In this document: positions 20,631 to 43,497 of the stretch, one piece after another | Position numbering within the stretch: position 1 is the stretch's first letter | Layout: the number at the start of each line of letters is the position of its first letter | Assembly (NCBI GenBank): GCA_905212975.1 | Contig: CAJMGO010000004.1 | Coordinates: 4,044-68,043, forward strand | From: an uncultured Bacillota bacterium | GTDB taxonomy: Bacteria; Bacillota_I; Bacilli_A; RF39; UBA660 | Reading direction: 5' to 3' | DNA length: 64,000 bases | Program-made: the position numbers and the translations under genes | The notes under the pieces: model-generated | What the model was told of the DNA's origin: nothing | Databases searched by the model: none | The model's input: the letters and a program-made list of their open reading frames with translations, nothing else

Positions 20631-20666
20631 AAAAAACGATGGCTATTATAAGTCATCGCTTTTTTT
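20631..20666. terminator. Bidirectional terminator
   Basis: A-run, CGATG-N12-CATCG, T-run. It lies at the 3' end of the minus-strand membrane-protein gene. Confidence 0.5.
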
Positions 20667-20683
20667 AGAATATTTTTAAATTA

Positions 20684-21507: not shown

Positions 21508-21542
21508 TTGTAAATTTTATTTTATATTGCTATAATTAAATT

Positions 21543-24043: not shown

Positions 24044-24928
24044 ATGAAGTATTTATCTGAATTTTTAAAATACATTGATTTAGAAAAAAACTATTCTAAT
24101 TATACTTTAATTAATTATAAAGATGATTTATCTTTTTATTTAGATTTTTTAAATAAAGAGAATATTGATGTGTTAGATAGTGATTATAAAGTAATTAGAA
24201 ATTATTTATCATATATGTATAATAAAAAATATAGTTCTAAAACTATAAGTAGACATATAAGTTCTCTTAGAAGCTTTTATAAATATATGTTAAAAGAAAA
24301 TTATATAGTTAAAAATCCTATGACTCTTATATCTAATCCAAAACAAGAAAGTAAACTACCTCATTTTTTATACTATAATGAACTTGAAACTATTTTAAAT
24401 ATTCCAGATAAAAGTACACCTTTAGGTCAAAGAGATAGTGTAATATTAGAGCTTTTATATTCAACTGGTATAAGAGTAAGTGAGCTAGTTAATATAAAAT
24501 TAAAAGATATAAATTTAAGTACAAGAAAAATTAGAATTTTAGGTAAAGGAAATAAGGAAAGAATAGTTTTATATGGAGAATATTTAAAAAACTTACTTGA
24601 TATATATTTAAATGATGGAAGGGAAAAATTAGTAAAGAATAATCAAGAGTATCTGGTTTTAAATAAAAATGGTAGTGGTCTTACAACTAGAGGAGTTAGA
24701 GTTATAATAGATAATATTTTAAAAAAAGGTGAAATAGATTTTCATATTAGTCCACACGTTTTAAGGCATACTTTCGCAACACATATGTTAGATAGTGGAG
24801 CTGATTTAAAAAGTGTTCAAGAATTATTAGGTCATGAGAATTTATCTACTACTCAAATTTATACTCATGTTTCAAATGAACGACTTAGAAAAGTATATTT
24901 ATCAACACATCCAAGAGCCAAAATGTAA
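24044..24928 (+). CDS. Tyrosine site-specific recombinase XerC/XerD family
   Basis: 294 aa with C-terminal catalytic motifs HVLRHTFATHML and LGHENLSTTQIYTHV (R-H-R-Y). The size and motifs fit chromosome-dimer-resolution Xer recombinases. Confidence 0.8.
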   Translation: MKYLSEFLKYIDLEKNYSNYTLINYKDDLSFYLDFLNKENIDVLDSDYKVIRNYLSYMYNKKYSSKTISRHISSLRSFYKYMLKENYIVKNPMTLISNPKQESKLPHFLYYNELETILNIPDKSTPLGQRDSVILELLYSTGIRVSELVNIKLKDINLSTRKIRILGKGNKERIVLYGEYLKNLLDIYLNDGREKLVKNNQEYLVLNKNGSGLTTRGVRVIIDNILKKGEIDFHISPHVLRHTFATHMLDSGADLKSVQELLGHENLSTTQIYTHVSNERLRKVYLSTHPRAKM

Positions 24929-27708: not shown

Positions 27709-28713
27709 ATGAAGAAGAGAAAGAATAAGAAGAAAATTATAATATTTTTATTTATAATATTATTATTGATTTTATATTTAATTATTTTATTTTTAAATTA
27801 TAAGAATGCAATTAACTTAAAAAGAAAAGCAGATGAAGTGCTAATTACAGTAGATAAAGATTTATCTATTACAAAAAAGTATAATGAATGTATTACGAAG
27901 AAATACACCGAATCTGATATGACAGATGAAATAAAAAATAAGATAGAAGAAATAGATAAATATATAAAGGAAAATTATGAAGCAAGTGTGTATTATGAAG
28001 ATATTAATACTGGTTTTAAATATACTTATAATGAAAATACAGTTTACTATGGTGCAAGTTTGATTAAACTAGTTGAAGCTATGTATATTTTTGATGAAGC
28101 AGAAAAGGGTAATATAGATATAAATGATACATTAACGTATACAGCCAAATATAAAAAAGCTTATAGTGATGGTATGGAAAAGCATAAAATAGGTGATGAT
28201 GTATCTATAAAAGAATTAATAAGTTATGCTATTATGTATAGTGATAATAGTGCTCATTTTATGCTAAGTGATTATATAGGTACTGATAATCTTAAGGCTT
28301 ATGGTAAAAAATTAGGTGCTAAATATACATTGTATGGAACTGACACTTTTGGTTCACAAACAGCATATGATACTAATATATATTTGAAACATGCTAACGA
28401 AATAATAGAAAATAGTAAAGAATATGGACCACTTTTAAAACAATATATGATGAATACTTATTATAATTCTCTTTATTTAACTGATAAAGATAGCAATAAT
28501 GTAGCGCATAAATATGGATGGTATAGTTATTATTATCATGATATTGGAATAGTATATGAAACAAGACCTTATTATATATCAATTTTAACTTTGCATGGAA
28601 ATGATGATTATGAAAAAGTTGTTAGAAATATACATAAAAAAGTAAATGAATTACATCATCTATATTATAAAAATAGACAACAAGTATGTAAAGATAAAAT
28701 ATATGGTAATTAA
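27709..28713 (+). CDS. Membrane-anchored class-A beta-lactamase-like serine hydrolase
   Basis: N-terminal TM, then S-L-I-K (SxxK), YSDNSA (SDN) and HKYGW (KxG) motifs in class-A order. Confidence 0.5.
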   Translation: MKKRKNKKKIIIFLFIILLLILYLIILFLNYKNAINLKRKADEVLITVDKDLSITKKYNECITKKYTESDMTDEIKNKIEEIDKYIKENYEASVYYEDINTGFKYTYNENTVYYGASLIKLVEAMYIFDEAEKGNIDINDTLTYTAKYKKAYSDGMEKHKIGDDVSIKELISYAIMYSDNSAHFMLSDYIGTDNLKAYGKKLGAKYTLYGTDTFGSQTAYDTNIYLKHANEIIENSKEYGPLLKQYMMNTYYNSLYLTDKDSNNVAHKYGWYSYYYHDIGIVYETRPYYISILTLHGNDDYEKVVRNIHKKVNELHHLYYKNRQQVCKDKIYGN

Positions 28714-28782: not shown

Positions 28783-29931
28783 ATGAAGAAAGTATTATGT
28801 TTCTTATGTTTGTTTTTTATTGCATTTAGTGTAAAAGCAGAAGAGTCAAAAGTAGATTATACTTTAGCTCAAAATGCAGAAAGTGCTATATTGATTGAGG
28901 CATCAACTGGTAAAATATTATTTGAAAAAAATTCTCATGAAAAATTATCTCCAGCTTCTATGACCAAAATGATGAGTATGCTTCTAGTAATGGAAGCAAT
29001 AGAAAATGATGTTATAAAATGGGATGATATTATTACTGTATCACAAAGAGCTTCTTCTATGGGAGGAAGTCAAATACTTCTTGAAGTTGGAGAAAAAATG
29101 AGCGTAGAAGATTTATTTAAAGGTGTTGCTGTGGGTAGTGCAAATGATGCTGTTGTAGCACTTTCAGAAGCTGTAGCTGGAAGTGTTGAAGAATTTGTAG
29201 AAATGATGAATAAAAGGGCAAGTGAATTAGGTTTAACAGATACAAATTTTAAAAATCCACATGGACTTGATGAAGTAAATCATTATTCTTCAGCGCATGA
29301 TATGTCCATTATAGCTCGTGAGTTATTAAAACATGAAAAAGTATTGGAGTTTTCATCAATATATGAAGATTATTTAAGAAAAGGTACTGATCGTGAATTT
29401 TGGTTAGTTAATACAAATAAACTTGTTAGATTTAATCCTATTGTGGATGGATTAAAAACTGGTTATACAAAAACTGCAGGATACTGTTTAACAGCTACAG
29501 CTAATAAGAATAATATGAGACTTATATCAGTAGTAATGAAAGAACCAGATACTACTACAAGAAATAGTGAAGTAACAGAAATGTTAGATTATGGATATGC
29601 TAAATATAAATTAGAAAAAGTTGTAGATAAAAATGATGTATTAAAAGAAATAAAAATCTCTAAAGCAAAAGATGAAACTGTAAAGATTGTACCAGTTAAT
29701 GATGTAAATATAATAATGAATAAATCTACGAAGCTTGGAAATATTACATATGATTTAAATATAAATAAAATAACTGTACCCACTAAAAAAGGTACATGTG
29801 TTGGAAAATTAAGTATAAAAGAAAACAATAAAATTGTTGATACTATTAATGTAACTATAAAAGAAGATGTAACTAAAGTAAATATATTTAAACTTTATTT
29901 AAGAACATTAAAAGATATTATTACAGGATAA
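28783..29931 (+). CDS. D-alanyl-D-alanine carboxypeptidase (peptidase S11; DacB/DacF-like)
   Basis: Signal peptide. SMTK (SxxK), SANDA (SxN) and KTGYT (KTG) motifs, plus a C-terminal beta-sandwich domain. Confidence 0.8.
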   Translation: MKKVLCFLCLFFIAFSVKAEESKVDYTLAQNAESAILIEASTGKILFEKNSHEKLSPASMTKMMSMLLVMEAIENDVIKWDDIITVSQRASSMGGSQILLEVGEKMSVEDLFKGVAVGSANDAVVALSEAVAGSVEEFVEMMNKRASELGLTDTNFKNPHGLDEVNHYSSAHDMSIIARELLKHEKVLEFSSIYEDYLRKGTDREFWLVNTNKLVRFNPIVDGLKTGYTKTAGYCLTATANKNNMRLISVVMKEPDTTTRNSEVTEMLDYGYAKYKLEKVVDKNDVLKEIKISKAKDETVKIVPVNDVNIIMNKSTKLGNITYDLNINKITVPTKKGTCVGKLSIKENNKIVDTINVTIKEDVTKVNIFKLYLRTLKDIITG

Positions 29932-30012
29932 TATCTTTTTATAATACTTAGAATATTATTTTAGATATTTTTATCAATATAATGAATTATATGTTATAAT
30001 TATATATAGATT
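29911..30012 (+). repeat. Repeat copy 1: gene-end (KDIITG*) + 11-bp-stem terminator hairpin + promoter cassette
   Basis: AAAGATATTAT-TACAGG-ATAATATCTTT hairpin overlapping the dac stop, then ~75 bp that is >90% identical to 33431-33505. The cassette contains an extended -10 TGTTATAAT at about 29990. Confidence 0.8.
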
Positions 30013-30044
30013 AGATAGAATAATTTGAAAGTGAGACTTTTATT

Positions 30045-30698
30045 ATGAAGAAGAAAATAATAATCATTACTACTTTGATAATGTTAATATTAATAATTAT
30101 TATTTTATATACACTATATTATTTTAATTATATTCCACATAAAAAATATACAAATACAGATTTTAATATAAAAACTTATAAAAGCAATATTGATAAAGAT
30201 AATGACGGTATAGATGATCAAACAGATATATTAAATAATGCAAAAAATTATATAGAAAAAAAGCCTAAATATAGGAGTAAATATTATGAAACAGGTTATC
30301 CTGATGATGAATATGGAGTTTGTACTGATGTAGTAGCTTTTGCATTAAAAGATGCTGGATATGATTTAATGACCTTAGTAAATGAAGATATCAAAGCCAA
30401 TAAAGATTTATATGATATAAATGTTATTGATAAAAAAATAGACTTTAGAAGAGTTCAAAATTTAAAAATATATTTAGATAATAATGCTATAAGTCTTACT
30501 ACAGATATAAATAAAATAGATAAGTGGCAAGGTGGAGATATTGTTGTATTTAAAAAACATATCGGAATAGTGTCTGATAATAGAAATAAAAAAGGAATAA
30601 GTTTCATTATACATCATGCTAGTCCTTATCAAAGATATTATGAAGAAGATATTTTAGAATATAGAAAAGATATAGTTGGTCATTATAGAATTAGTTAA
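30045..30698 (+). CDS. Membrane-anchored hypothetical protein, possibly a papain-like (NlpC/P60 or DUF1287-type) hydrolase
   Basis: N-terminal TM. Conserved-looking Cys (YGVCTDVVAFAL) and downstream His (KKHIGIV, IIHHASP) in Cys...His order. Weak evidence. Confidence 0.3.
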   Translation: MKKKIIIITTLIMLILIIIILYTLYYFNYIPHKKYTNTDFNIKTYKSNIDKDNDGIDDQTDILNNAKNYIEKKPKYRSKYYETGYPDDEYGVCTDVVAFALKDAGYDLMTLVNEDIKANKDLYDINVIDKKIDFRRVQNLKIYLDNNAISLTTDINKIDKWQGGDIVVFKKHIGIVSDNRNKKGISFIIHHASPYQRYYEEDILEYRKDIVGHYRIS

Positions 30699-30743
30699 GA
30701 GTTTTAAAAAAATTAAAAAATAATAAATTGGAGATGGTGATAA

Positions 30744-33293
30744 ATGTATTCTAAAAGAAAAGAAGATATATTAAAAATTTTGAATAGTAATATTTCTGGA
30801 TTAGATAGTAAAGAAGCAAATAAAAGATTAAATGATTATGGAAAAAATATTATTTTAAATAAAAAGAGAAAACCATGGATTTTAAGATTTTTAAAACAAT
30901 TTAATGATACAATGATTATTATATTATTAGTAGTAGCATTGCTTTTATATTTTTATGGAATTTTCTATTCTCATGAGTATACTGATACTATTGTTATTCT
31001 TTTTGTAGTTTTTATAAATGCTATTGTTGGATTTGTACAAGAGGAAAAAGCAACATTAATATTAAATGATTTAAAAAAATATGAAACTAGTACTTGCAAA
31101 ATAAAAAGGGATAATAAAATTATTGTAATAAATACTAAAGAATTAGTTCCAGGAGATATAATCTATTTAGAATCTGGAGAAACAGTTCCTGCTGATATTA
31201 GAATATTATCTTGTGAAAATTTGAAAGTAGATGAATCTACTTTAACCGGAGAAAGTGTTCCTGTTTTAAAATGTGAAGATGTTTTAGAAGAAAATTTAAT
31301 TCTTCAAGAACAAAAAAACATGCTATTTTTAGAAACAAGCATTACAAGTGGAAAATGTACTGGTATAGTTGTAAGTACAGGAAAAAACAGTGAGATAGGC
31401 AAGATTGCATTATCACTTAATGAAGTTGATACATTAGAAACACCATTACAATTAAAAATAAAAGAGCTTTCTAAAAAGATAACAATAATAGTATTTATTA
31501 TTTTAATATTTATCTTTATTTTAGCTTTAATAAATAAGTATACAATACTTGAAATTATAATGCTATGTTCATCTCTTGCAGTAGCTGCTATTCCAGAAGG
31601 ATTACCAACTGTAATTACAATAACATTGTCCATTGGAATATCTAATTTAGCAAAAAAGAAAACAGTGGTAAAACAAATGCAAGCAGTAGAAACACTTGGA
31701 GCTATAGACATTATTTGCTCTGATAAAACTGGTACTATAACACAAAATAAAATGACTGTTAAAGAAGAATATGTGTTAGATGAAAATATGCTTAATTATA
31801 TATGTGCTCTTTGTAATGATGGCCTTATTTATAAAGATAAATATGTTGGTGATCCTACAGAAACATGTTTGTATGACTATCTATACAATAAAAAGATTGA
31901 TCCACTTAAATTAAGAAAAAAATGTAACAGAATATTAGATATACCATTTGATAGTGATAGAAAGATGTTTACTACCTTAAATAAAATAGATAATGATATA
32001 TATATATTATGTAAAGGTAGTATGGAATCTTTGATAGAAAAAGTAAATTTAACTAAAAGTGAGAAAAATGATATTTTAGATAAAGTTAAATGTTTATCTA
32101 AAGATGCTCTAAGGACTTTAGGATTTGCTTATAAAAAAATAGATTATATACCAAAAAATATTAAAGAGTTAGAAGAAGAGGAAAAAGATTTATCTTTTGC
32201 TGGTATTCTAGGAATGATAGATCCGCCTAGAAAAAGTGTTAAGAAAAGTGTCCTTTTATGTAAAAAAGCTGGAATTAGACCAATTATGATTACAGGAGAT
32301 TCTATAGATACAGCAACTGCTATTGCCAAAAATGTTGGAATAATAACTAATGATAATGAAGCAATAATTGGAAGTGAACTTGATAAATATAATGATAATG
32401 AATTAAAAGACATAGTAAAAAAATATTCAGTATATGCAAGAGTTAATCCATCACATAAACAAAGAATAGTTTTTGCTCTTCAAAATAGTGGAAAAATTGT
32501 AGCAATGACCGGAGATGGAGTAAATGATGCTCCAGCTATTAAAGATGCTCATGTTGGTGTAGGAATGGGTATTACTGGTACTGATGTTACAAAGTCAGCT
32601 TCTGACATAGTATTAATGGATGATTCTTTTTCAACAATAGTTGTAGCAGTTGAAGAGGGTAGAAGAATATATAATAATATCAGAAATAATATAGTATTTT
32701 CATTATCAAGTAATTTTGCTGAAATATTTACTATTATTATAGGGTTACTTACTAAAAAAACAATTTTATTGCCAATTTATATCTTATTTATTGATTTGGT
32801 AACAGATTCTATTCCAAGTATATGTTTATCTTTTGAAAAAAGTGAAAATGATATAATGAATAAAAAACCAAGAGGTATTGATAAACCATTATTTACATCT
32901 TTTATTAAATCTTGTATTGCATCTTCAGCTATAATAGAAACTGTATTTGTAGTTTTTACATATTTTATTAGTTTAAAAAATTATGGACAAGAAACAGCTA
33001 TGTCTTTAGCGCTTCTTTCAATGGTAATTCAAGAAATTGTTTATTCAATTTCTTGTAGAAATCTAAAACAATCAATTATTAAACAAGGAATATTTTCTAA
33101 TAAACCAATGAACTATGGAATATTATTGATACTTTTAATTGAACTTATAGTGTTTATTACTCCTATAGGTAAATTAATAAGTATTACATCAATAGATATT
33201 AGATTAATTTTAGCTGTATCTATCATAAATTTAATGTCAATATTTATTTATGAATTAATTAAACCATTATTAGTAAAATGGTTTAAAGATTAA
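30744..33293 (+). CDS. P-type ATPase, Ca2+-transporting (type IIA)
   Basis: 849 aa. Motifs DKTGTITQNKMT (phosphorylation site), TGES, MITGD and MTGDGVNDAPA, with a 10-TM architecture. Confidence 0.85.
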   Translation: MYSKRKEDILKILNSNISGLDSKEANKRLNDYGKNIILNKKRKPWILRFLKQFNDTMIIILLVVALLLYFYGIFYSHEYTDTIVILFVVFINAIVGFVQEEKATLILNDLKKYETSTCKIKRDNKIIVINTKELVPGDIIYLESGETVPADIRILSCENLKVDESTLTGESVPVLKCEDVLEENLILQEQKNMLFLETSITSGKCTGIVVSTGKNSEIGKIALSLNEVDTLETPLQLKIKELSKKITIIVFIILIFIFILALINKYTILEIIMLCSSLAVAAIPEGLPTVITITLSIGISNLAKKKTVVKQMQAVETLGAIDIICSDKTGTITQNKMTVKEEYVLDENMLNYICALCNDGLIYKDKYVGDPTETCLYDYLYNKKIDPLKLRKKCNRILDIPFDSDRKMFTTLNKIDNDIYILCKGSMESLIEKVNLTKSEKNDILDKVKCLSKDALRTLGFAYKKIDYIPKNIKELEEEEKDLSFAGILGMIDPPRKSVKKSVLLCKKAGIRPIMITGDSIDTATAIAKNVGIITNDNEAIIGSELDKYNDNELKDIVKKYSVYARVNPSHKQRIVFALQNSGKIVAMTGDGVNDAPAIKDAHVGVGMGITGTDVTKSASDIVLMDDSFSTIVVAVEEGRRIYNNIRNNIVFSLSSNFAEIFTIIIGLLTKKTILLPIYILFIDLVTDSIPSICLSFEKSENDIMNKKPRGIDKPLFTSFIKSCIASSAIIETVFVVFTYFISLKNYGQETAMSLALLSMVIQEIVYSISCRNLKQSIIKQGIFSNKPMNYGILLILLIELIVFITPIGKLISITSIDIRLILAVSIINLMSIFIYELIKPLLVKWFKD

Positions 33294-33400
33294 TAATTAT
33301 CTTTTTAATATTTAAATTAAATTTTATAAAATGAAATATAATTTTTGAATATACTAAAAGAATTTTATTCAAAATATGAAAGAATAAGTAATATAAAGTA

Positions 33401-33505
33401 AAAGATATTATTACAGGATAATATCTTTTTATAATACTTAGAATATTAATTTTAGATTTTTTATCAATATAATGAATTATATAGTATAATTATATATAGT
33501 ATAGA
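33401..33505 (+). repeat. Repeat copy 2: remnant gene end (..VKDIITG*) + hairpin + promoter cassette
   Basis: Identical 28-nt hairpin and downstream promoter-like DNA as in copy 1. Only ~9 codons of the gene end are retained upstream. Confidence 0.8.
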
Positions 33506-33539
33506 TAGATAAATAGTAATTTGTTTGTTAGGAGGAAAT

Positions 33540-34112
33540 ATGAAAAAGAAAGCAATTATAGTTTTAATGACCGTTGCACTAATTATAAGTTGCATCATAA
33601 TATTATTTTTATTAAACAGAAAATACTCATATGAAGATGAGAACACATTGTATTATATAGAATTTAAAAACGAAATATTGAGATTTGAAAGATATGATTA
33701 TTCAACAGGCCAAAATCAAGTTGTCGTTGTTCAAAAAAGTACTGATAAAGGAAAAACTTTTGAAAATGTAACAAAAGAACCAATAATATTAAGTATGGAA
33801 CCTAAATTAATTTTTTTAGATAAAAATTTAGGATTTGCAATTGCTAAATCAAACTTAACAAAGAACAATGATTATATGGGATTTAAAGTAACACAAGATG
33901 GTGGCAAAAGTTTTATAAATAGTAAAATAAACTACTATAATCCTAATATTGAAATTTTAACGGTGGAATCAACACCATATTTTGAAAATGATGTTTTGAA
34001 AGTTAAATGTTCAATTTATCAAGTTAGAGAAGATAAAAATGGATATGAAGATGTAGAATTAATATTCATAAGTATTGATAATGGATTAAGTTGGGATTTA
34101 GATGACAAATAG
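33540..34112 (+). CDS. Secreted/membrane-anchored hypothetical protein
   Basis: 190 aa with an N-terminal hydrophobic anchor. RBS AGGAGG. Driven by the duplicated promoter cassette. Confidence 0.5.
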   Translation: MKKKAIIVLMTVALIISCIIILFLLNRKYSYEDENTLYYIEFKNEILRFERYDYSTGQNQVVVVQKSTDKGKTFENVTKEPIILSMEPKLIFLDKNLGFAIAKSNLTKNNDYMGFKVTQDGGKSFINSKINYYNPNIEILTVESTPYFENDVLKVKCSIYQVREDKNGYEDVELIFISIDNGLSWDLDDK

Positions 34113-34139
34113 TAATTGTAAAGTGAGGTAAATATTATG

Positions 34140-34530
34140 TGACAGAATATAGAACAAGAAATTCAAAACTGTAAAAAAATGGTAAAATTACAATTTTTAT
34201 TATTTGTGCTTTAATTATGATTTTAGTTTTCTGTTTCATTTTATTTAAATCATTTATTGTTGAACTTGCAAAAAAAGACTATTATTATATTGGTATTACG
34301 GAAAATAATAGAAGTAAAATAATAGAATTATTAGAAGAAAGAAATATAGAATATTGTGAATCAATTTACAAGATTGAATTTATGTAAAATTTACCAGATG
34401 ATAAAAGTGGAGAAATTTATTGTTTAGATAAAAAAATATTTATTTTATTATTGATGATTCGATGATGAAAAATGATTTAGTAGATTATATTAAAAATAAT
34501 GGTGTACATACAAAAGAATAAATTGCAATT
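34140..34530 (+). pseudogene. Degraded gene remnant(s): frameshifted fragments of a small N-terminally anchored protein
   Basis: Short ORF pieces (MVKLQFLLFVL*; MILVFCFILFKSFIVELAKKDYYYIGITENN...; ...LPDDKSGEIYCLDKK...; MMKNDLVDYIKNNGVHTKE*) lie in different frames around an A7 tract. They resemble N-termini of the flanking small secreted proteins. Confidence 0.3.
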
Positions 34531-34548
34531 TACTAAATAGGAGGAAGT

Positions 34549-35118
34549 ATGAAAAAGAAACTTTTAATTATTTTAGGATTTATATTAGTGATTTTGATAG
34601 TTGCAGGATTTGTTACAAGTTATATTGATAGTGCAAGAGTTAGAAATAGTGTTGAACCAAAGTTTACAATCAAAATAGTAAGCGAAGATGGAAAGAAGGT
34701 TACATATTGGGGATTAGGATATAAAGTTGTTCTATATCCAAGTGTTAGTCCGAACGAACCATTTAAAAATAATCGTGGTGTAAAGTATGGTAGTTGGTTT
34801 ATGAAATATAGCTTAGATAGATATGATGAAATCAGAGATGAAATAGATAAAGAACTAGAAAAATATATGAGTCTTGTTAGTCCAAATTGTCAACAAGGAA
34901 ATGGTGGTCAATTAATTACTCATGAAACTCTAGTGTTTAATGGTGGAATGGATAAGGATGTGTTGTTAGATATAGATAATGAATCATATTGTGGTTTATA
35001 TGTAAAAACATCTTGTCCAAAAGATGGAATAAATGAATGGAAAATATATCTAAGTTGTAATGACTATGAAGATGAAGAATATATAGAGTGGGCAAAAAAA
35101 TTTGAGCCAAAGAAATAA
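34549..35118 (+). CDS. Secreted/membrane-anchored hypothetical protein
   Basis: 189 aa with an N-terminal TM and four Cys. RBS AGGAGG. Confidence 0.5.
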   Translation: MKKKLLIILGFILVILIVAGFVTSYIDSARVRNSVEPKFTIKIVSEDGKKVTYWGLGYKVVLYPSVSPNEPFKNNRGVKYGSWFMKYSLDRYDEIRDEIDKELEKYMSLVSPNCQQGNGGQLITHETLVFNGGMDKDVLLDIDNESYCGLYVKTSCPKDGINEWKIYLSCNDYEDEEYIEWAKKFEPKK

Positions 35119-35262
35119 AAACAAATTACAATTTATCTAATTGTTCGTAATATAATAATATAACAAACATTCAAGCAGAAAAATCTGCTTTTTTTATTTT
35201 GTAACTTAGTTGTAACATTGATTATAATATAATGTTATTGTGAAAAGGAGGAATTGTTAGTT

Positions 35263-35934
35263 ATGGAAATTTTGAAAGTAGATAATTTAACTAAAATTTA
35301 TGGTAAAGATACAACAAAAGTTGTTGCATTAGATCATGTTTCTTTTTCGGTAGAAAAAGGTGAATTTGTAGCAATAGTTGGTGCATCAGGATCTGGTAAA
35401 TCAACACTACTACATTTAATTGGAGGTGTTGATCGACCATCTTCTGGCAAGGTGTTTATTGATGGTAAAGATATATTTAATTTTAATGATGATAAACTTG
35501 CTATATTTAGAAGAAGACAGGTAGGATTAATATATCAATTCTATAATTTAATACCTATATTAAATGTAGAAGAAAATATAACACTGCCACTTTCTTTAGA
35601 TAATCGTGAGGTTGATAAAGAAAAATTGAACGATATGTTAAAACTGTTAGGATTACAAAATAGAAGAACACATCTTCCTAATGAATTATCTGGTGGACAA
35701 CAGCAAAGAACAAGTATTGGTCGTGCTTTAATTACTAATCCTACAATTATACTAGCTGATGAGCCAACTGGTAACTTGGATTCTAAATCAAGTGATGAAA
35801 TAGTTGCTCTACTAAAAAAATCAAATAAAGAACTTAATCAAACAATTATTATGATTACTCACAATATGGAAATTGCAAAAGTGGCTGATAGGATAATTAA
35901 AATTGAAGATGGAAAAATTGTTGAGGAGGTATAA
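35263..35934 (+). CDS. ABC transporter ATP-binding protein (MacB/FtsE-like)
   Basis: Walker A GASGSGKST, signature LSGGQQQR, Walker B ILADEPTGNLD. RBS AGGAGG. Confidence 0.85.
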   Translation: MEILKVDNLTKIYGKDTTKVVALDHVSFSVEKGEFVAIVGASGSGKSTLLHLIGGVDRPSSGKVFIDGKDIFNFNDDKLAIFRRRQVGLIYQFYNLIPILNVEENITLPLSLDNREVDKEKLNDMLKLLGLQNRRTHLPNELSGGQQQRTSIGRALITNPTIILADEPTGNLDSKSSDEIVALLKKSNKELNQTIIMITHNMEIAKVADRIIKIEDGKIVEEV

Positions 35935-35936
35935 TT

Positions 35937-38558
35937 ATGAGCTTACTTAACAAATTGACAATTAAAAATCTTAAATTGAATAAGAAAAGAACAGTCGTTA
36001 CTATTATTGGTATTATGCTATCAGTTGCTTTAATAACAGCTGTAGCATCTATATACTCTAGTGGTATAAAATCATTAATTAAATACGAAACATGCGAAAA
36101 AGGAAACTTTCATACTGCATTTTACAATGTCCCTGTTAGTGATATCGATATATTTGAAAACAATAGAAATATAGAAACTATCAATATTACTAAAAATGTT
36201 GGTTATGCTAAAATAGACTCTAAAAATGAATATAAACCTTACGCTTTTATAAAGGCATTTACTAAAGATTCTTTAAAAAATTTATCTGTTAAACTGGTGG
36301 ATGGAAGGCTTCCTGAAAATGAAAATGAAATAGTTATACCGACTCATTTAAAAACAAATGGTAGATTATTTTTAAATATTGGTGATTCTATTACTTTAGA
36401 TATAGGAAAAAGAATTGATAATAGTAATTATGAATTAAATCAAAATAATCCATATCAAAAAAATGATGAAGAAGTTGGTGAATCTATAGTTGAAACAACA
36501 TCAAAAACATATAAAATAGTTGGTATTATAGGAAGACCAGCTACAAATATAGAAGGTTATTCTGCACCAGGATATACATTTATAACTTATCTTGAAGAAA
36601 ATAAAATAAATGGAATTGTTGATGTATATGCAAGATTTTCAAAAGATGGTGTAAAAAACAGTTATGAAACTATTGCTAATATATTAGGTGTTGATGCAAA
36701 ATTATTTAAGAAAGTTAATGATAATGAGAAACAAGCGTCAAATAAAGAATTAAAAGAATATCTAAATCAAATGGATAAAGCAAAATATAGTGATATAAAT
36801 GTTAATTCCTATTTAATTGCTTTAGAAACAAATCCTATTTCAAATAGTGGTATTGGCGGTTTAGGTATTGTTGTAGGAATTGTAATAGGAATAATTGTAT
36901 TTACTTCAATATTTTGTATAAAAAATAGTTTTGATATTTCTATTACAGAGAAAATAAAGCAATATGGTATGTTAAGAAGTATTGGAGCAACTAAAAGACA
37001 AATTAAAAGAAATGTTTTTTATGAAGCTACAATATTAGGATTAATTGGTATTCCATTAGGACTATTACTTGGTTTTATAGCATCATATATACTTATTATC
37101 ATAAGTAATTATTATTTAAATGGTTCATTTGCAGAAGGTTTAAAATTAGTATTTTCTTTTTCTTGGTTGTCTGTTTTAGTAGCCATAATACTTGGTATTG
37201 TAACTATATACTTCTCTGCATTTAGAAGTGCAAAACGAGCATCTAAAGTATCACCAATAGATTCTATTAGAAATAGTGCTAATATTAAAATAAATCCTAA
37301 AAAGATTAAATCACCAAAATTAATAAAAAGTATATTTGGTGTGGGTGGCGAAATATCATTTAAAAACTTAAAAAGAAATAAGAAAAAATATAGAACTACA
37401 GTTATATCAATAGTTGTTTCTGTATTTATATTTATTGCTTTATCAGGATTTATGAAATTGGCATTTCAACAAGTAGATCATGAATTAGAGATATCTGATT
37501 TTAATATTTCATTATCTACAACTATCACAAATAATGAATCTTATAATAAATTTATAGAAACTACTAGATTAGATAATATAGAAGATTATACAATATTTAG
37601 AAATAGTGAAATATCTTTTACAGGGAATCATTATAACAAAGAATATGCTAAGTTTTTAAATTTAGCATTAGATGAAAATAAACCTACATATGCATCTATA
37701 ATTTCTATTGGAGAAGAACAGTTTAAAAAGTATGTTGATTCATTAGGCTTAAATTATAATGAAATTAAAAATAAAGCTATTCTTGTTGATAAGGGATATG
37801 TTTCTAACTATAATAAAAACAATAAGTTAACTACTAAATATATGAGAGTATTTAACTTTAATAAAGGTGACATCATTGACGCCACTATCACTGATAAAGA
37901 TAAAAAAATAAAAATAGAAATTGGAGCAGTTTCTGATGTTAAACCTTTTGGATTTAAAGGTGTCGATGGGCAATATTTACTTATTAGTGATGAAATGTTT
38001 GATGCTAATTTTAAATCTAAATCATTAGCAATATATTATAAATCAAATGATGCTGATAAATTACAAGATGATCTTGATGATTTCTTAAAAGGCGAAGATT
38101 ATAACATTAATAATGTAGATGAAAATGTTAAAATAATGAGTAACTTATTTACTTTAGTAGGAATATTTCTTTATGGATTTATAATTGTAATTTCATTAAT
38201 CGGTATAACTAATATTTTTAATACTATTACTACTAATATGGAACTACGAAAACAAGAATTTGCTATGTTAAAATCAGTTGGTATGACAACAAAAGAATTT
38301 AACAGGATGATTCGATTAGAAAGTTTATTTATGGGTATTAAATCTCTATTCTTTGGTGTACCTATTGGAATAGCATTATCATATATTATTTATCATTTCT
38401 TATCAGAAGAATCAGGAATACCTTATAAACTTCCTATTGTAGCAATATTAATTGCTATAGCAGTTGTATTTATACTTATTTCGTTAATTATGAAGTATTC
38501 TATGAGTAAAATAAATAAGCAAAATACTATTGAAACAATTAGAAATGAGAATATCTAA
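35937..38558 (+). CDS. ABC transporter permease with duplicated FtsX domains
   Basis: 873 aa with two FtsX modules (YGMLRSIGATKRQI and FAMLKSVGMTTKEF), each followed by TM helices, and large extracytoplasmic loops. Starts 3 nt after the ATPase stop. Confidence 0.8.
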   Translation: MSLLNKLTIKNLKLNKKRTVVTIIGIMLSVALITAVASIYSSGIKSLIKYETCEKGNFHTAFYNVPVSDIDIFENNRNIETINITKNVGYAKIDSKNEYKPYAFIKAFTKDSLKNLSVKLVDGRLPENENEIVIPTHLKTNGRLFLNIGDSITLDIGKRIDNSNYELNQNNPYQKNDEEVGESIVETTSKTYKIVGIIGRPATNIEGYSAPGYTFITYLEENKINGIVDVYARFSKDGVKNSYETIANILGVDAKLFKKVNDNEKQASNKELKEYLNQMDKAKYSDINVNSYLIALETNPISNSGIGGLGIVVGIVIGIIVFTSIFCIKNSFDISITEKIKQYGMLRSIGATKRQIKRNVFYEATILGLIGIPLGLLLGFIASYILIIISNYYLNGSFAEGLKLVFSFSWLSVLVAIILGIVTIYFSAFRSAKRASKVSPIDSIRNSANIKINPKKIKSPKLIKSIFGVGGEISFKNLKRNKKKYRTTVISIVVSVFIFIALSGFMKLAFQQVDHELEISDFNISLSTTITNNESYNKFIETTRLDNIEDYTIFRNSEISFTGNHYNKEYAKFLNLALDENKPTYASIISIGEEQFKKYVDSLGLNYNEIKNKAILVDKGYVSNYNKNNKLTTKYMRVFNFNKGDIIDATITDKDKKIKIEIGAVSDVKPFGFKGVDGQYLLISDEMFDANFKSKSLAIYYKSNDADKLQDDLDDFLKGEDYNINNVDENVKIMSNLFTLVGIFLYGFIIVISLIGITNIFNTITTNMELRKQEFAMLKSVGMTTKEFNRMIRLESLFMGIKSLFFGVPIGIALSYIIYHFLSEESGIPYKLPIVAILIAIAVVFILISLIMKYSMSKINKQNTIETIRNENI

Positions 38559-38620
38559 TATAAGGAGCGAAAAGCTCCTTATATTGTGGTATAATATTAT
38601 GTAATGAAAGGAGCTAATAT

Positions 38621-39277
38621 ATGAATATTTTGTTAATTGAAGATACAGAATCAATTATAAAAGGACTCACATACTCTTTTGAAAAAAATAACTATAATTT
38701 AAATGTAAAAACTACTATAAAAGATTCAAAAGAATATTTATTAAATAACTCCAACATTGATTTAATAATACTTGATATAACTTTACCAGATGGAAATGGA
38801 TTTAACTTATTTGAAAATACTATTAAGAATTTAAAAATTCCTACTATTTTTTTAACAGCTAAAGATGAAGAAGATGATATTGTTAAAGGATTAAATGTAG
38901 GTGCTGAAGATTATATAACTAAACCTTTTAGCTCTAAAGAATTACTTGCAAGAGTTAATAGAATATTATTAAGATCTAAAAAGAAAAATATTATTAAAGT
39001 AAAAGATATTTCTTACGATATGGATAAATTTGTTTTAATGAAAGATAATATTCCTATTGAACTAACTGCATTAGAATTAAAACTTGTAAATTTATTATTT
39101 AATAACTTAAATAAAGTAGTTAGTAGAAATGTTATATTAGATAAAATTTGGGATTGGACTGGTAATTATGTAGATGATCATACGGTTACCGTTTATTTCA
39201 AAAGAATTAGAGAAAAAATAGGAACAGATATTATTACTACTATTAAAGGAATGGGTTATAGGATTGATGAAGAATAA
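38621..39277 (+). CDS. OmpR-family response regulator
   Basis: Receiver domain (LLIEDTESI, phospho-accepting D in LIILDITLPDG) and a winged-helix output domain. 218 aa. Confidence 0.85.
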   Translation: MNILLIEDTESIIKGLTYSFEKNNYNLNVKTTIKDSKEYLLNNSNIDLIILDITLPDGNGFNLFENTIKNLKIPTIFLTAKDEEDDIVKGLNVGAEDYITKPFSSKELLARVNRILLRSKKKNIIKVKDISYDMDKFVLMKDNIPIELTALELKLVNLLFNNLNKVVSRNVILDKIWDWTGNYVDDHTVTVYFKRIREKIGTDIITTIKGMGYRIDEE

Positions 39278-40481
39278 AATTAAATTAAAACAGTATTTTA
39301 TTTCTACATTTATTGTATCAATATGTTTATTTGTTTCGTTCCTAACATTAAATATATATGAATACAATACTTATACTAAAAATTTTAATAATAAAATTGG
39401 TGCTATTATTAATGTAATCAAAGATAAGTATCCAGAAATAACGGATAAAGAAATTATTACAATTTTAAATAGTGATGAATTTGAATCTAATGATTTTTTT
39501 ATCAAATATGGAATTGATGTAGATAATAAATCAGTTCTTATTAAAAATGATAAAGACTATCATATGTTTTTAGTTATAAATATGTCTTTTTTAACAATAA
39601 CTATTATTATTTTAATGATTTTATATATTAGATATAATCATAAAAAAGAAAATGATATAAAGGATATTATTAAATGTATAGAAGAAATAAACAAAAAGAA
39701 CTATGAATTACAGATTGATTCGATATCAGAAGATGAATTATCAATTTTAAAAAATGAAATATATAAAACTACCATAATGTTAAAAGAATCAGCTGAAAAT
39801 TCTAACAAGGATAAAATAAATCTAAAAAAATCATTAGAAGATATTTCTCATCAATTAAAAACTCCACTTACTAGTATATTAGTAATGTTAGACAATATTA
39901 TTGAAGATCCTGATATGGATAAGTGTGTTAGAAATGATTTTATTAGAGATATAAAAAGAAATGTTACAAACATTAATTTTTTGGTACAAACACTTTTAAA
40001 GTTATCAAAGTTTGATGCTAATACAGTTTATTTTATAAAACAAGAAAATGATTTACAAAATATTGTTAAAGAATCCATTAAAAATGTTTCTACTTTATGT
40101 GATTTAAGAAACATTAATATTGAATTTAATACTAAAGGAAATTCTAAAATTGTATGTGATTCTAAATGGCAAATTGAAGCAATAACTAATATATTAAAAA
40201 ATGCTATAGATCACTCTAAAAATGCTTCAAAAGTAACAATTAATATAGAAGATAATAATGTATATTCAATGATTGAAATTATTGATACTGGTGATGGTAT
40301 TTCTAAAAAAGATATAGCACACATCTTTGAGAGATTTTATAAAGGTGAAAATGCTACATCTGATAGTATAGGTATTGGACTGGCTCTAGCAAAGACTATT
40401 ATTGAAGAAGATAACGGAAATGTTAGTGTTGAATCAAACAAACTAGGAACAAAATTCGTAATTAAATATTTTAAATTATAA
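39264..40481 (+). CDS. Sensor histidine kinase
   Basis: Two TM helices flanking an ~80 aa extracytoplasmic loop. H-box SHQLKTPLTSI. N, G1 and G2 boxes (NAIDHS, DTGDGIS, GIGLALAKTI). Overlaps the RR stop. Confidence 0.8.
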   Translation: MMKNKIKLKQYFISTFIVSICLFVSFLTLNIYEYNTYTKNFNNKIGAIINVIKDKYPEITDKEIITILNSDEFESNDFFIKYGIDVDNKSVLIKNDKDYHMFLVINMSFLTITIIILMILYIRYNHKKENDIKDIIKCIEEINKKNYELQIDSISEDELSILKNEIYKTTIMLKESAENSNKDKINLKKSLEDISHQLKTPLTSILVMLDNIIEDPDMDKCVRNDFIRDIKRNVTNINFLVQTLLKLSKFDANTVYFIKQENDLQNIVKESIKNVSTLCDLRNINIEFNTKGNSKIVCDSKWQIEAITNILKNAIDHSKNASKVTINIEDNNVYSMIEIIDTGDGISKKDIAHIFERFYKGENATSDSIGIGLALAKTIIEEDNGNVSVESNKLGTKFVIKYFKL

Positions 40482-40578
40482 TGCTCATAGTGTAGTAATA
40501 ATCCGAATAATCTAATTTAGAAAAAATGTGGTATAATTGAATAGATAGATAGTAATTTATTGAAATGGAGGATTGATT

Positions 40579-41034
40579 ATGAAAAAAATTTTAACTATTT
40601 TATTATGTGGGATTATAGTATTGGGAATGGCAGGATGTGGAAAAGCAAAAAATAAATTTGATATTGGAAATAAGTCTAATATTAAGATTTCACAAAATGA
40701 TGTTACAATGACTATTAAAGAGGGAACATTAACAAATAAAAGTGCAACTCTTGTTTTAACAAATAATAGTGATAAAAATTTCCAATATGGGGATCCTTAT
40801 GAAATAGAAATTAAAAAAGATGAAGAATGGCATAAAATAAATATTGAATTATATTTCGATATGCCAGCTTTTCAACTTTCAGCAAAAGAAAGTAAAGAAA
40901 TTGAACTCAATTGGGAAAATGGGTATGGTAAACTTGCAAATGGAACTTATAGAATTATAAAAGAAATTGACTATGAATATGAAGAAGAAAAATATGAAAC
41001 TTTCAATGTAGCAGTTGAATTTACTATTGAATAA
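40579..41034 (+). CDS. Lipoprotein, unknown function
   Basis: Signal peptide with lipobox LGMAGC. 151 aa. Confidence 0.55.
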   Translation: MKKILTILLCGIIVLGMAGCGKAKNKFDIGNKSNIKISQNDVTMTIKEGTLTNKSATLVLTNNSDKNFQYGDPYEIEIKKDEEWHKINIELYFDMPAFQLSAKESKEIELNWENGYGKLANGTYRIIKEIDYEYEEEKYETFNVAVEFTIE

Positions 41035-41068
41035 AAATTACAATTTGATAATTTGTTAGGAGGCTTAT

Positions 41069-41245
41069 ATGAAAAAATATATAAAATATTTAATAAATAT
41101 AGTTGTTTTTGAAATTATATATACTTTAGTAATGTATTTGTTTTCTAAAAGTATAAATTGGAAAATGGTTTTTGTTACAACAATAATATATGCTGTTTCT
41201 TATATAGTAACTGATTTGATATGTGATAAATTAAAAAAAGAATAA
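41069..41245 (+). CDS. Small 2-TM membrane protein (58 aa), absent from the ORF track
   Basis: Strong RBS AGGAGG 7 nt upstream of the ATG. Two hydrophobic helices. Confidence 0.35.
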   Translation: MKKYIKYLINIVVFEIIYTLVMYLFSKSINWKMVFVTTIIYAVSYIVTDLICDKLKKE

Positions 41246-41248
41246 ATT

Positions 41249-41327
41249 ATGAATTAAAAATATGAAGATTATAAAAAAAATAAAACAAAAAGAATATTAA
41301 AAGATATTATTACAGGATAATATCTTT
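41249..41327 (+). repeat. Repeat copy 3: gene-end remnant (..KTKRILKDIITG*) + terminator hairpin
   Basis: Same AAAGATATTAT-TACAGG-ATAATATCTTT hairpin at 41300-41327, preceded by a 23-codon ORF remnant ending KDIITG*. Confidence 0.7.
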
Positions 41328-41400
41328 TACTTTACACAGATAATTATTTTATTATTTAGTTTTTTGTTATTTTATACTATAATATGTATGGTGGTAAGAT

Positions 41401-42582
41401 ATGAAAAAAATAGTATTTGGTTTAATTATTTTTTTAACATTTATAAATGTTTCTGCGTTAGATATAAATTCAAAAAATGCAGTTCTTTATAATTTAAATG
41501 ATGATAACGTAATATATGAAAAATCTAAGGATGAAAAGATTCAAATAGCTAGTTTAACTAAGATAATGACATCTATTGTAGCTATTGAAAATATAGATAA
41601 TATAAATGATTATGTTACTCTTAAACAATCTGATTTTAAAGGATTAGAAGGGTATGCGAAAGCTGGATTTAATGTTGGCGATAAGGTAACGTATGAAGAT
41701 TTATTATATGGTATTATTTTACCAAGTGGTGCAGATGCTGTACAAGCTATTGCTAATAATGTATCTGGTAGTATTGATGACTTTGTTGAATTAATGAATA
41801 AAAAAGCAGTTGAGTTAAATTTAAAAAATACTCATTTTGATAATCCTATAGGTATGGATAGTGTTGAGAATTATTCTAGTGTAGATGATGTTGCTAAAAC
41901 TTTAAAATATGCATTAAAAAATAAAGATTTTAAAAAAATATTTACTACAAAAAAGTATACAACAACAAATGGTCTTGTTTTATCTAGTACACTAAGTGCC
42001 AAAGCAAAAGTTTTAAATAAAGATGCAAGTTACATATTAGGTTCTAAAACAGGAACAACTAATAAAGCTGGTCTTTGTTTAGCTAGTATAGCTTCCTTAA
42101 GTAATATTGATTATTTACTTGTAACTTGTGGAGCAAAAAATGGATCTTACCCATATAATTTAGAAGATGCATTAGATACTTATAATTATTATGATGAGAA
42201 CTATGAATATAAAACTTTAATAAGTAAAAATCAATTACTAAAAACTTTAAAAGTTAAAAAAAGTACAATTAAGAAATTAGATATATATTCTAATAAAAAT
42301 ATAAAAGTATATGTAAAAAAGAATATTGATTTAAATAACTTAGAATATAAATATGATGGATTAGATGTTATAGATTATAAATCAAAAGTAGGGGATAAAC
42401 TTGGCGTTATAACTGTTATGTATGAAGGAGAAGAATTATATACTTACGATGTTGTTTTAAATACTGAAATAAAGAAATTTCCTTATTATTTAATTTATAT
42501 TTCTATATTTGTATTTTTTATGTTAATAATTTATATAAAGAATAAAAAGAAAAAAAGAAGAATAAAAAGAAGAAAAAGATAG
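41401..42582 (+). CDS. D-alanyl-D-alanine carboxypeptidase family protein (S11), membrane-anchored by a C-terminal TM and poly-basic tail
   Basis: SLTK (SxxK), SGADA (SxN-like) and KTGTT (KTG). C-terminal TM followed by KKKKRRIKRRKR. Confidence 0.7.
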   Translation: MKKIVFGLIIFLTFINVSALDINSKNAVLYNLNDDNVIYEKSKDEKIQIASLTKIMTSIVAIENIDNINDYVTLKQSDFKGLEGYAKAGFNVGDKVTYEDLLYGIILPSGADAVQAIANNVSGSIDDFVELMNKKAVELNLKNTHFDNPIGMDSVENYSSVDDVAKTLKYALKNKDFKKIFTTKKYTTTNGLVLSSTLSAKAKVLNKDASYILGSKTGTTNKAGLCLASIASLSNIDYLLVTCGAKNGSYPYNLEDALDTYNYYDENYEYKTLISKNQLLKTLKVKKSTIKKLDIYSNKNIKVYVKKNIDLNNLEYKYDGLDVIDYKSKVGDKLGVITVMYEGEELYTYDVVLNTEIKKFPYYLIYISIFVFFMLIIYIKNKKKKRRIKRRKR

Positions 42583-42585: not shown

Positions 42586-43497
42586 TTAATTTTCTATCTT
42601 TTTAATTGCATCTTTAATTATATCAACTGAGTTTTGTAATTTATTTGTTTCTTCTTCATTTAATTTAACATATATTCTTTTTTGTATACCTGATTTATTT
42701 ATTATAGAAGGTATTCCCATATATATATCATTTACTTCATCATATGCTGAAACAGCAAGTACTGTATTTTCATCACCTAATATAGCATTTGTTATTCTAG
42801 CTAAACACATACCAATTCCATAGAATGTAGCACCTTTTTTATTAATTATTTCATATGCAGCATTTCTAACATCTTTTTCTATTTCAGATAGTTCTTGATT
42901 ATTTAAAAAATCAGTTATATTTTGAAGACCTATATTAACATTACTCCATGGAACAAATTCTGAATCACCATGTTCTCCAATAACATACCCATGTACGTTT
43001 TTAGGATTAATATTTAGTTTTTCTCCAACTAAATAACGAAGTCTTGCTGTATCAAGACATGTACCAGAACCAATTACTCTATTGTGAGGTAATTTTGAAT
43101 ATTTAAATGTTAAATATGTCATAACATCAAGTGGGTTAGTAGCAATTAAAAATATACCATCAAATCCAGAAGACATTACATTATCTATAATAGATTTAAA
43201 TATTTTACTATTTTTATATATTAAATCCATTCTTGTTTCACCAGGTTCTTGATTTGCACCAGCAGCAATTACAATTAATGTAGCATCTTTACAATCAGAA
43301 TAATCTCCAGCTTTTATATCTATTTTAGAAGGACCTACTGCAAGACAATGATTTAAGTCCATTGCTTCTCCTTCTATTCTTGTTTTATTTAAATCAATTA
43401 AAACAAGTTCATTAACATATGTTCTTTGATTCAAAAGGGCATATGCATAACTCATTCCAACATTTCCACAACCTATTATTACAACTTTATTTTTCAT
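42586..43497 (-). CDS. ldh: L-lactate dehydrogenase
   Basis: NAD-binding VVIIGCGNVG, substrate/catalytic loop GEHGDSEFVPWS, 303 aa. Confidence 0.9.
   Translation of the reverse strand: MKNKVVIIGCGNVGMSYAYALLNQRTYVNELVLIDLNKTRIEGEAMDLNHCLAVGPSKIDIKAGDYSDCKDATLIVIAAGANQEPGETRMDLIYKNSKIFKSIIDNVMSSGFDGIFLIATNPLDVMTYLTFKYSKLPHNRVIGSGTCLDTARLRYLVGEKLNINPKNVHGYVIGEHGDSEFVPWSNVNIGLQNITDFLNNQELSEIEKDVRNAAYEIINKKGATFYGIGMCLARITNAILGDENTVLAVSAYDEVNDIYMGIPSIINKSGIQKRIYVKLNEEETNKLQNSVDIIKDAIKKIEN

Follow-up and report, generated by a model that had tools for sequence, protein, structure and literature searches.

We analysed a 64,000-nucleotide stretch of contig CAJMGO010000004.1 (assembly GCA_905212975.1), which comes from an uncultured Bacillota bacterium; this whole stretch, with a G+C content of 24%, is referred to here as the window. 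The gene with which we are concerned is dacF (28783..29931, + strand), which encodes a 382-aa protein resembling the S11 D-Ala-D-Ala carboxypeptidases (Pfam Peptidase_S11, 4e-83, together with PBP5_C). The end of dacF lies within a perfect 28-nt palindrome, AAAGATATTATTACAGGATAATATCTTT, in which two 11-nt arms surround a 6-nt loop (AAAGATATTAT-TACAGG-ATAATATCTTT), and this palindrome occurs three times in the window, at 29911, 33401 and 41300, each time on the + strand and with 0 mismatches. Beyond the third copy is dac2 (41401..42582, + strand), a second S11 carboxypeptidase gene (Pfam) with its own -10 element and ribosome-binding site, and beyond dac2 is ldh (42586..43497, - strand), which is convergent with both dacF and dac2 and forms the conserved right border of the slot that begins at the end of dacF. 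No further match to the hairpin was found in the 64-kb window at up to 3 mismatches, and the three copies observed compare with 0 in 100 dinucleotide shuffles.

The three copies differ in what surrounds them. Copy 1 (29901..29939, + strand; hairpin 29911-29938) is the native gene end of dacF (R-T-L-K-D-I-I-T-G-stop), with the stop codon located within the 3' arm, and its sequence is unchanged across all same-species loci examined. Copy 2 (33399..33514, + strand; hairpin 33401-33428) is an orphan dacF end that is followed by a promoter-like region, P2 (-35 element 33461-33466, -10 element 33485-33490, TG absent); the in-frame reading 5' of this hairpin is TAA-Y-K-V-K-D-I-I-T-G-*, which has no start codon and is closed by a stop nine codons upstream. 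Copy 3 (41290..41328, + strand; hairpin 41300-41327) is a second orphan end, located ~70 nt upstream of dac2, whose match to dacF is confined to the last 10 codons (R-I-L-K-D-I-I-T-G-*) and which has no promoter part. A repeat finder reported copies 1 and 2 as a 116-nt direct repeat (29909-30024 and 33399-33514, spacing 3490 bp) that is 90% identical without gaps, or 94.6% identical over 112 nt when one gap is allowed (BLAST), and all three copies as a 39-nt family (29901-29939, 33391-33429 and 41290-41328) in which copy 3 matches the dacF end at 38 of the 39 positions. An earlier note on this DNA, made from the letters alone, had described three identical hairpins at these positions, had read the first as the last codons and stop of a DacF-like S11 carboxypeptidase and the other two as orphan gene ends, and had seen a longer near-identical stretch in copies 1 and 2; our analysis agrees with it on each of these points and traces both orphan ends to dacF.

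Between dacF and dac2 lies an 11.4-kb insert made up of two blocks, which are bounded by copies 1 and 3 and divided by copy 2. Block A (30045..33293, + strand; Pfam) encodes a DUF1287 membrane-anchored protein (30045-30698) and a P-type cation ATPase (30744-33293). Block B (33540..41245, + strand; Pfam and gene tables) begins at 33540 with genes for a BNR-like 190-aa protein and then a 189-aa protein, and continues, all on the + strand, with an ATP-binding cassette (ABC) ATPase (35254-35934), an FtsX permease (35937-38558), a response regulator (38621-39277), a histidine kinase (39264-40481), a Big_14 lipoprotein (40573-41034) and a 58-aa open reading frame (ORF; 41069-41245). Block B thus comprises an ABC/FtsX module, a two-component system and small exported proteins. 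In addition to the copy at the 3' end of dacF itself, the hairpin stands at the 3' ends of the ATPase gene (copy 2) and of the 58-aa ORF (copy 3), such that each orphan copy closes an inserted unit. No recombinase, integrase or transposase was found in either block by Pfam.

Several observations bear on where the copies came from. The DacF protein of the window ends ...LYLRTLKDIITG, and homologues at 63-80% identity keep LY.RYLKDI(I/V)SGN.. or, more generally, end ...LY(L/F)R(T/Y)LKDI(I/V)(T/S)G, mostly with N-I-x-I after the motif. Within dacF the hairpin's 5' arm encodes part of this motif (AAA GAT ATT AT, that is, K-D-I-I). Since the motif is conserved in DacF homologues, the 5' arm is old coding sequence, and copies 2 and 3 must have come from the end of dacF rather than from a mobile repeat that landed there; we count this origin among the points that the sequence comparison shows. 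The earlier note had also proposed a rearrangement within the dac family. Such recombination between paralogues was considered and rejected, as DacF and Dac2 of the window are 27% identical, their genes are ancient neighbours (see below), and all three copies come from dacF alone.

To place the window in context, the same-species variants of DacF and the Dac2 protein of the window were looked up and the resulting loci were mapped by BLAST. In a relative whose DacF is 69% identical (L024), the gene order is VanY-VanY-DUF5698-dacF-dac2-ldh(-)-pdf(-), with a dac2 gene (64% identical to that of the window) directly after dacF. The gap between the two genes is thus 52 nt in L024 as against 11.4 kb in the window, within the same gene frame. 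Moreover, copy 3 of the window, together with the TATAAT and the GGTGGTA ribosome-binding site that precede dac2, aligns with the junction between the end of dacF and dac2 in L024, copy 3 occupying the place of the dacF end. It follows from this alignment that the original junction is now split, its left half being copy 1 and its right half copy 3, with an overlap of 39 nt. On this evidence dac2 was the right-hand neighbour of dacF ancestrally, a point that we also count as shown. The comparison of synteny that the earlier note had called for thus identifies copy 1, with dacF, as the original. Block A is absent from L024. Note that the hairpin at the same gene end of L024 has a different sequence (AAAGGAT-aaaa-ATCCTTT), which suggests that the function of the gene-end hairpin, presumably termination, is conserved and its sequence is not.

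The slot also varies among more distant loci. It is framed by dacF and ldh(-) in L024, L025 and L052-L054, and in the more distant relatives L052-L054 dacF directly adjoins ldh. In a relative with a DacF of 80% identity (L023) the slot holds three other, unrelated genes, and in L025 it holds an island with a tyrosine integrase; the direct repeats flanking this island were 16-27-nt matches of chance level, and no att sites could be called. In another species (DacF 67% identical), comparison of L055 with L056 reveals that a NERD/HRDC gene has entered precisely at the stop codon of dacF, where there is an 8-nt overlap or duplication (AAATTTTA). Because the occupants differ in L023, L025 and L055/L056, the 3' flank of dacF is a recurrent point of insertion across related species. 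(Comparison of L055:8120-9360 with L056:6580-6740 indicates that the NERD newcomer inherits the original dacF terminator and that dacF gains a new one.) Two further observations were made around dacF in these relatives. In L023 (3500-3540) a TfoX_N gene before dac2 contains, near its end, TTAAAAGATATTATT (L-K-D-I-I), a 14-nt match to the 5' arm, which may be a decayed scar of a dacF end fused into the TfoX_N gene or may be due to chance. On the other side of dacF, the window contains a class-A beta-lactamase-like gene (27709-28713; Beta-lactamase2, 334 aa) between the DUF5698/DUF2179 gene and dacF that is absent from that position in L024 and L052 and may be another insertion, on the upstream side.

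Within the species itself we found at least seven arrangements of the slot, others being those of L023, L024, L025, L052 and L055/L056. Many independent assemblies, obtained from various samples and studies, contain the three-copy order of the window, and the samples with the same DacF protein include human gut metagenomes. In a second arrangement (L030, L033, L037 and L043) a gene for a 212-aa protein stands in place of 33528-35117, and copy 2, whose loop is TATAAG, includes another 47 nt of dacF coding sequence (dacF positions 1082-1237). In a third (L035 and L039) 33398-40544 is missing, the left edge of the missing segment being the first base of copy 2; copy 3 of these strains has diverged to AAAGGTATTGTTATAAGACAATATCTTT, that is, AAAGGTATTGT-TATAAG-ACAATATCTTT, with one compensatory change of A-T to G-C and one G.U pair. 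In a fourth arrangement, found in three samples (L057, L058 and L059), block A is missing and dacF leads by way of a copy-2-type hairpin and promoter region into block B. In a fifth (L027, L029, L032, L036 and L042) there is an extra island between dacF and block A. The polymorphism among strains thus falls exactly at the repeats. The only insertion sequences are add-ons found in L035/L039 and L036. (They are an HTH_28 plus rve insertion sequence between dac2 and ldh, at L035:16737-17977 and L039:16738-17978, and an IS110-family transposase inside block B, at L036:19666-20868.) Assemblies break at the hairpin locus in L002 and L048-L051, and the repeats explain why contigs recurrently break at this locus.

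The extra islands (L027:11177-16320, L032:11177-13981, L042:7585-15998 and L029:11177-12549) all start at dacF position 1176 (window 29958), 20 nt past the hairpin. They share a left end, AAATTAAATAAAGAATAGAAAGTGCTAGTATAGAC..., of which 77 to 430 nt are common, and a right end of ~57 nt, ...GGTATCATTTCATCAAAAAGTGATACC...CAATATTCAC, which joins a fragment of dacF that begins at position 629 and thus amounts to a 548-nt duplicate of the gene. Among the other strains the dacF fragments run from position 629 or 852 to the end of the gene; the fragment is internally deleted in L029 and L032/L036. The cargo between these ends differs: L042 carries an AlwI-type restriction enzyme, a methyltransferase and a KAP NTPase (with PifA/QatA-like matches); L032/L036 a Schlafen/AlbA_2 ATPase and two small genes; L029 a GNAT acetyltransferase; and L027 NUDIX, HhH-GPD, methyltransferase and UDG genes and a nucleoside deoxyribosyltransferase-like gene, a set that could be an uncharacterised module for DNA modification or defence. 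No recombinase was found in the islands of L027, L029, L032 and L042, and Rfam found nothing in the non-coding leader of the island in L029. With their common ends, the islands look like one ancestral scaffold in which the cargo has been swapped.

Sequence appears to be exchanged between the repeats. The full-length and the fragmentary dacF of the island strains differ over the 548 nt by 1 nt within L027 and by 1 nt within L042, as compared with 5 nt between the fragments of L027 and L042, a pattern of concerted evolution between the two copies of a strain. In the orphan copy 2 of L030, L037 and L043 there are two changes, namely TATAAG in the loop and a T>A substitution by which a TAA arises after ...L-R-T, and in an orphan these cost nothing. 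The same two changes are found in the functional dacF end of the strains that lack block A, whose DacF proteins end ...IIIR (P0030) or ...LRT* (P0038). The simplest reading of this pattern is that recombination between copy 1 and copy 2 deleted block A and, in doing so, moved mutations of the orphan into dacF. The repeats probably still recombine.

We also considered what the hairpin and the sequence next to it may do. The RNA of copy 1 is predicted to fold into a 13-bp stem (-10.3 kcal/mol, z -5.5) followed by the U run UUUU(U)AUAAU. Across strains the loop varies freely (TACAGG, TATAAG or TATAAA), and the three substitutions seen in the arms produce two G.U pairs and one compensatory G-C pair, such that pairing in the RNA is kept (the independent events being few); changes of this kind fit an RNA stem made from the + strand. 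Perfect stems of at least 10 bp number 18 in the window as compared with ~2.4 in shuffles, most of them have an A-tract, a stem and a T-tract, and those that were checked (38557, 42573, 45754 and 58205) are at gene ends, some overlapping stop codons. This survey argues that the dacF hairpin is an ordinary terminator for this genome, even though a GC-based scan omits it, and we infer that it serves as the intrinsic terminator of dacF. (The stem at 58205-58248, with 20 perfect base pairs and a 4-nt loop, is the longest palindrome in the window. It overlaps the ends of the convergent ORFs 56809-58233 (+) and 58223-58543 (-) and is probably a bidirectional terminator.)

A consensus scan places a promoter-like region and 5' untranslated region, P1 (29939..30024, + strand), before the DUF1287 gene, with a -35 element TTATCA at 29971-29976, TG at 29992-29993 and a -10 element TATAAT at 29995-30000. 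The earlier note had assigned an extended -10 element to two of the copies. Such an element, TGTTATAAT (TGnTATAAT), does follow copy 1, and it is also found 3' of the same hairpin in L023, but the corresponding sequence after copy 2 in this strain reads TAGTATAAT and has no TG; in other strains copy 2 reads TGGTATAAT. Similarly, of the proposal that one promoter had been set before two genes for secreted proteins, what stands is that a promoter-like region was copied before a second, unrelated membrane-anchored gene; P1 and P2 are predicted promoters, judged by their sequence motifs. When the window was searched with the promoter region (nhmmer and short-word BLAST), no significant match other than P1 and P2 was returned; a match of 18 nt located 5' of the Big_14 gene (40541-40558, E 0.02) was considered as a fourth copy of the promoter and set aside as too weak.

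We think it likely that the slot after dacF is a hotspot of insertion that works without a recombinase, in which insertions anchored by homology have duplicated the end of dacF, the scars act as terminators, and the repeats still recombine. Under this explanation accessory DNA would have entered the junction between dacF and dac2 at least twice, each entry being anchored on homology to dacF. It could have done so through a single, Campbell-type crossover with a circle that carried a 3' segment of dacF, or, by homology-facilitated illegitimate recombination, through linear DNA that paired with dacF on its left and whose right end was joined illegitimately within the resident dacF end or immediately beyond it. 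Either route would duplicate part of the dacF end, namely 39 nt for copy 3 and 116-157 nt, with the adjoining promoter-like region, for copy 2. Each duplicated segment of dacF ends at or just after the hairpin and its start varies, so that its length is 8 nt (L055), 39 nt, 116-157 nt or 548 nt, as would be expected from either route. If survival was limited to events that restored a complete dacF, every duplicate would be expected to contain the end of the gene. The orphan ends would then be placed to terminate the inserted operons, and P2 would be placed to drive block B. The direct repeats that result could swap sequence with one another, and recombination between copies 1 and 2 would remove block A and change the C-terminus of dacF. 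Further islands, with defence genes among their cargo, are carried on this dacF handle in other strains.

Several points weigh against this explanation or limit it. The stem of the hairpin contains one G-C pair only and fails a scan for GC-rich terminators that requires at least 3 G-C pairs; because the gene-end hairpins of the window are themselves AT-rich at 24% G+C, we judge that threshold to be unsuitable here. That the hairpin is found only in this slot holds for the 64 kb of the window and for ~35 related loci. All of the strain data are metagenome assemblies, in which repeats can yield chimeric joins, and the apparent tandem island in L042 may be a loop made by the assembler. With regard to the strains without block A, L058 and L059 agree across two separate samples, which argues against a chimeric assembly. 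L057 is a k-mer-based (Logan) assembly contig that crosses the ~45-nt stretch common to both copies, at which such an assembler would, we presume, normally stop if both paths were in the sample. These contigs could also represent the state before insertion, the direction of the deletion being suggested solely by the mutations in the dacF end. As regards the exact pathway of recombination, which we infer from the junctions, a Campbell-type crossover and homology-facilitated illegitimate recombination both fit; there are short AT-rich matches at the junctions and the 8-nt overlap in L055, chance matches being likely at 24% G+C, and no donor sequence was found.

In a different account the palindrome would be the core at which a tyrosine recombinase acts (a XerC/D-like enzyme encoded at 24044-24928, for instance), with blocks A and B integrated site-specifically in the manner of dif or pdif modules and the site regenerated at their borders. 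The hairpin does have an 11 + 6 + 11 architecture in three identical copies and lies inside every duplicated segment, ftsK and a 294-aa Phage_integrase-family gene are 4-5 kb upstream, the blocks are in tandem, and there is an integrase island in the same slot of L025. However, because any hairpin terminator shares the 11 + 6 + 11 architecture, two inverted arms are also what a terminator would present, and the edges of the duplicates vary (dacF positions 629, 1082, 1119 and 1127 on the left; 1157, 1176 and 1237 on the right). The islands, moreover, enter 20 nt beyond the hairpin and not inside it, no block or island contains a recombinase, the xer-like gene beside ftsK is kept in relatives and looks like a housekeeping gene, and related species use the slot with different hairpins or none. 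The arms differ from what we take to be the conserved XerD arm, TTATGTAAACT. Finally, the G.U changes in the arms preserve a stem in the RNA and not a palindrome in the DNA, and the GC skew gives no sign of a replication terminus in the window. With variable junctions, no terminus signal and G.U variants of the RNA type, we rejected a dif/Xer site and regard a recombinase site as quite unlikely. A broader form of the idea, in which the dacF end is a docking platform where a host Xer-like enzyme encoded 5 kb upstream, or some structure-directed process, captures, stacks and releases modules without integrases (defence modules included) in an integron- or pdif-like way in a gut Firmicute with a reduced genome, has in our estimation a slim chance of being correct.

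We think it unlikely that what happened was a purely local duplication of the dacF terminator and promoter region, set before resident genes with no entry of foreign DNA. Such an event would account for the 116 nt, with the promoter-like region, found in both copy 1 and copy 2 ahead of genes for two unrelated membrane-anchored proteins, but not for the adjacency of dacF and dac2 in L024 or of dacF and ldh in L052-L054, for blocks A and B being present or absent between strains exactly at the repeats, for the lack of the promoter part in copy 3, or for the up to 548 nt of dacF coding sequence in some copies. Thus, of the repeated recombination or duplication that the earlier note had placed at a terminator-promoter junction, the recombination junction stands and the local duplication does not, given the 11.4 kb of inserted accessory DNA and the gain and loss among strains at the repeats. 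Also to be considered is whether the hairpin, or the 116-nt unit, might belong to the small dispersed repeats (REP, MITE or BOX) or be a common species-wide terminator that is here by chance. The hairpin is short and perfectly palindromic, the genome is AT-rich, and assemblies break at the hairpin, but the three copies per 64 kb are all in the slot between dacF and dac2, as are all of those in the ~35 related loci, none of which contains the hairpin outside the slot, the 5' arm is conserved protein-coding sequence, and the flanking identity reaches into dacF. Moreover, a scan of GTDB (one genome per species) for the two arms around any 6-nt loop gave 19 single matches in unrelated taxa, none with the TACAGG loop and none in the species of the window; these 19 are chance matches or unrelated hairpins. 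The exact hairpin had no match in the JGI metagenomes or in IMG/VR, nor had the shared left end of the islands in IMG/VR, and there is thus no sign of a phage or other element that carries the hairpin site; Rfam, run on the whole window, found nothing at the repeats. The earlier note had named a common dispersed terminator as what would speak against its reading, and no dispersed repeat appeared in any sequence examined; we regard this possibility as very unlikely. As to an assembly artefact, the source is a metagenome-assembled genome, but the recurrence of the three-copy order in independent assemblies leaves this possibility with next to no credibility.

The locus can be compared with several known systems. 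Hotspots of horizontal transfer have been described that are free of mobile elements and whose turnover proceeds through recombination in the core genes that flank them (Oliveira et al. 2017, PMC5635113). Like these, the slot varies in gene content between two conserved core genes (dacF and ldh), its blocks contain neither integrase nor transposase, there are signs of recombination in a flanking gene, and some strains carry defence cargo; here, however, the 3' end of the flanking gene is repeatedly duplicated, each event leaves a scar, and DNA appears to be gained and lost later by way of the scars. Arrays of orphan 3' ends that arise by homology-facilitated illegitimate recombination and sequential displacement have been reported at rhs, cdiA and type VI secretion system (T6SS) effector loci (Kirchberger et al. 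2017, PMC5361080; for primary work on such recombination, de Vries & Wackernagel 2002 and Prudhomme et al. 2002, as cited in PMC5361080). In those arrays, as here, an intact gene is followed by its own displaced 3' ends, parted by new DNA, and a one-sided homology anchor is proposed. Unlike the genes of those loci, dacF is a housekeeping gene for a PBP5-type carboxypeptidase and not for a polymorphic toxin, and its orphan ends, of 3 to ~180 codons, keep a terminator and in one case a promoter-like region. No toxin domains or immunity genes were found at the dacF orphan ends by Pfam; they are near-identical pieces of the carboxypeptidase C-terminus.

Integrative elements such as phage 21 and e14 in icd of E. 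coli insert at the 3' end of their target gene and bring with them a sequence that replaces it. The dacF locus resembles them in that the target gene stays intact as incoming DNA brings a copy of its 3' end and the displaced fragment is left downstream; it differs in that there is no integrase, the duplication is 8, 39, ~116-157 or 548 nt long, and there is no fixed crossover core. In dif/pdif systems modules are bounded by copies of a site at which Xer recombinases integrate elements. The 28-bp length, the 11 + 6 + 11 layout and modules bounded by copies are common to both, whereas at dacF there is no resemblance to a dif arm, the junctions lie outside the core, the copies all point the same way instead of alternating in orientation, and the locus is not at a replication terminus. 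Rho-independent terminators, like the dacF hairpin, combine a stem-loop and a U run at a gene end (and other gene ends of the window share the style of A-tract, stem and T-tract), but the dacF stem, apart from a single G-C pair, is nearly pure A-U and shares its sequence with the last six codons and the stop. The locus extends the known biology of hotspots; it does not reveal a new mechanism.

Some further observations were made in the window and in the sequences retrieved. A second strain-variable slot is located at 20242-20684, with a transfer RNA (tRNA) gene at 20328-20398, between an LtaS-like gene (18155-20242) and a gene for a 116-aa protein (20684-21034, - strand). When it was compared with the upstream regions of L027, L028, L030, L032, L033, L038, L041 and L043, its occupants, depending on the strain, were a methyltransferase; CBASS-like genes (CD_NTase_C and Cap15); VanZ together with a beta-lactamase-like gene; an ABC exporter; or a helix-turn-helix (HTH) protein. 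A 6S RNA (Rfam RF00013, 56.9 bits) lies at 21538-21704, just upstream of ftsK, and the tRNA genes of the window are at 20328, 55138, 56469 and 56560. A hairpin with the same arms, AAAGATATTATT-loop-AATAATATCTTT, occurs in several Gracilibacteria and Peribacteria genomes from different studies (L008:2408, L010:6776, L013:5906, L014:3381, L016:4294, L017:4092 and L018:4114), in either orientation and inside ~90 nt of conserved flanks. This hairpin is unrelated to the dacF case and gave no Rfam family in L008, L013 and L017, the three loci scanned; it may represent a non-coding element conserved in that lineage.

The locus preserves a legible record of how an uncultured gut bacterium with a small genome gains and loses accessory genes without the machinery of mobile elements. 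The scars left at the end of dacF can be used to order the insertion events; they would provide newcomers with ready-made terminators and, in one case, with a promoter-like region (activities predicted from their motifs), and they would serve as substrates for deletion and for gene conversion. Recombination between the repeats may also rewrite the C-terminus of a cell-wall enzyme, from ...TG to ...IR or with a truncation of 7 residues. Finally, the slot between dacF and ldh is a predictable place in which to look for strain-specific cargo in gut metagenomes.

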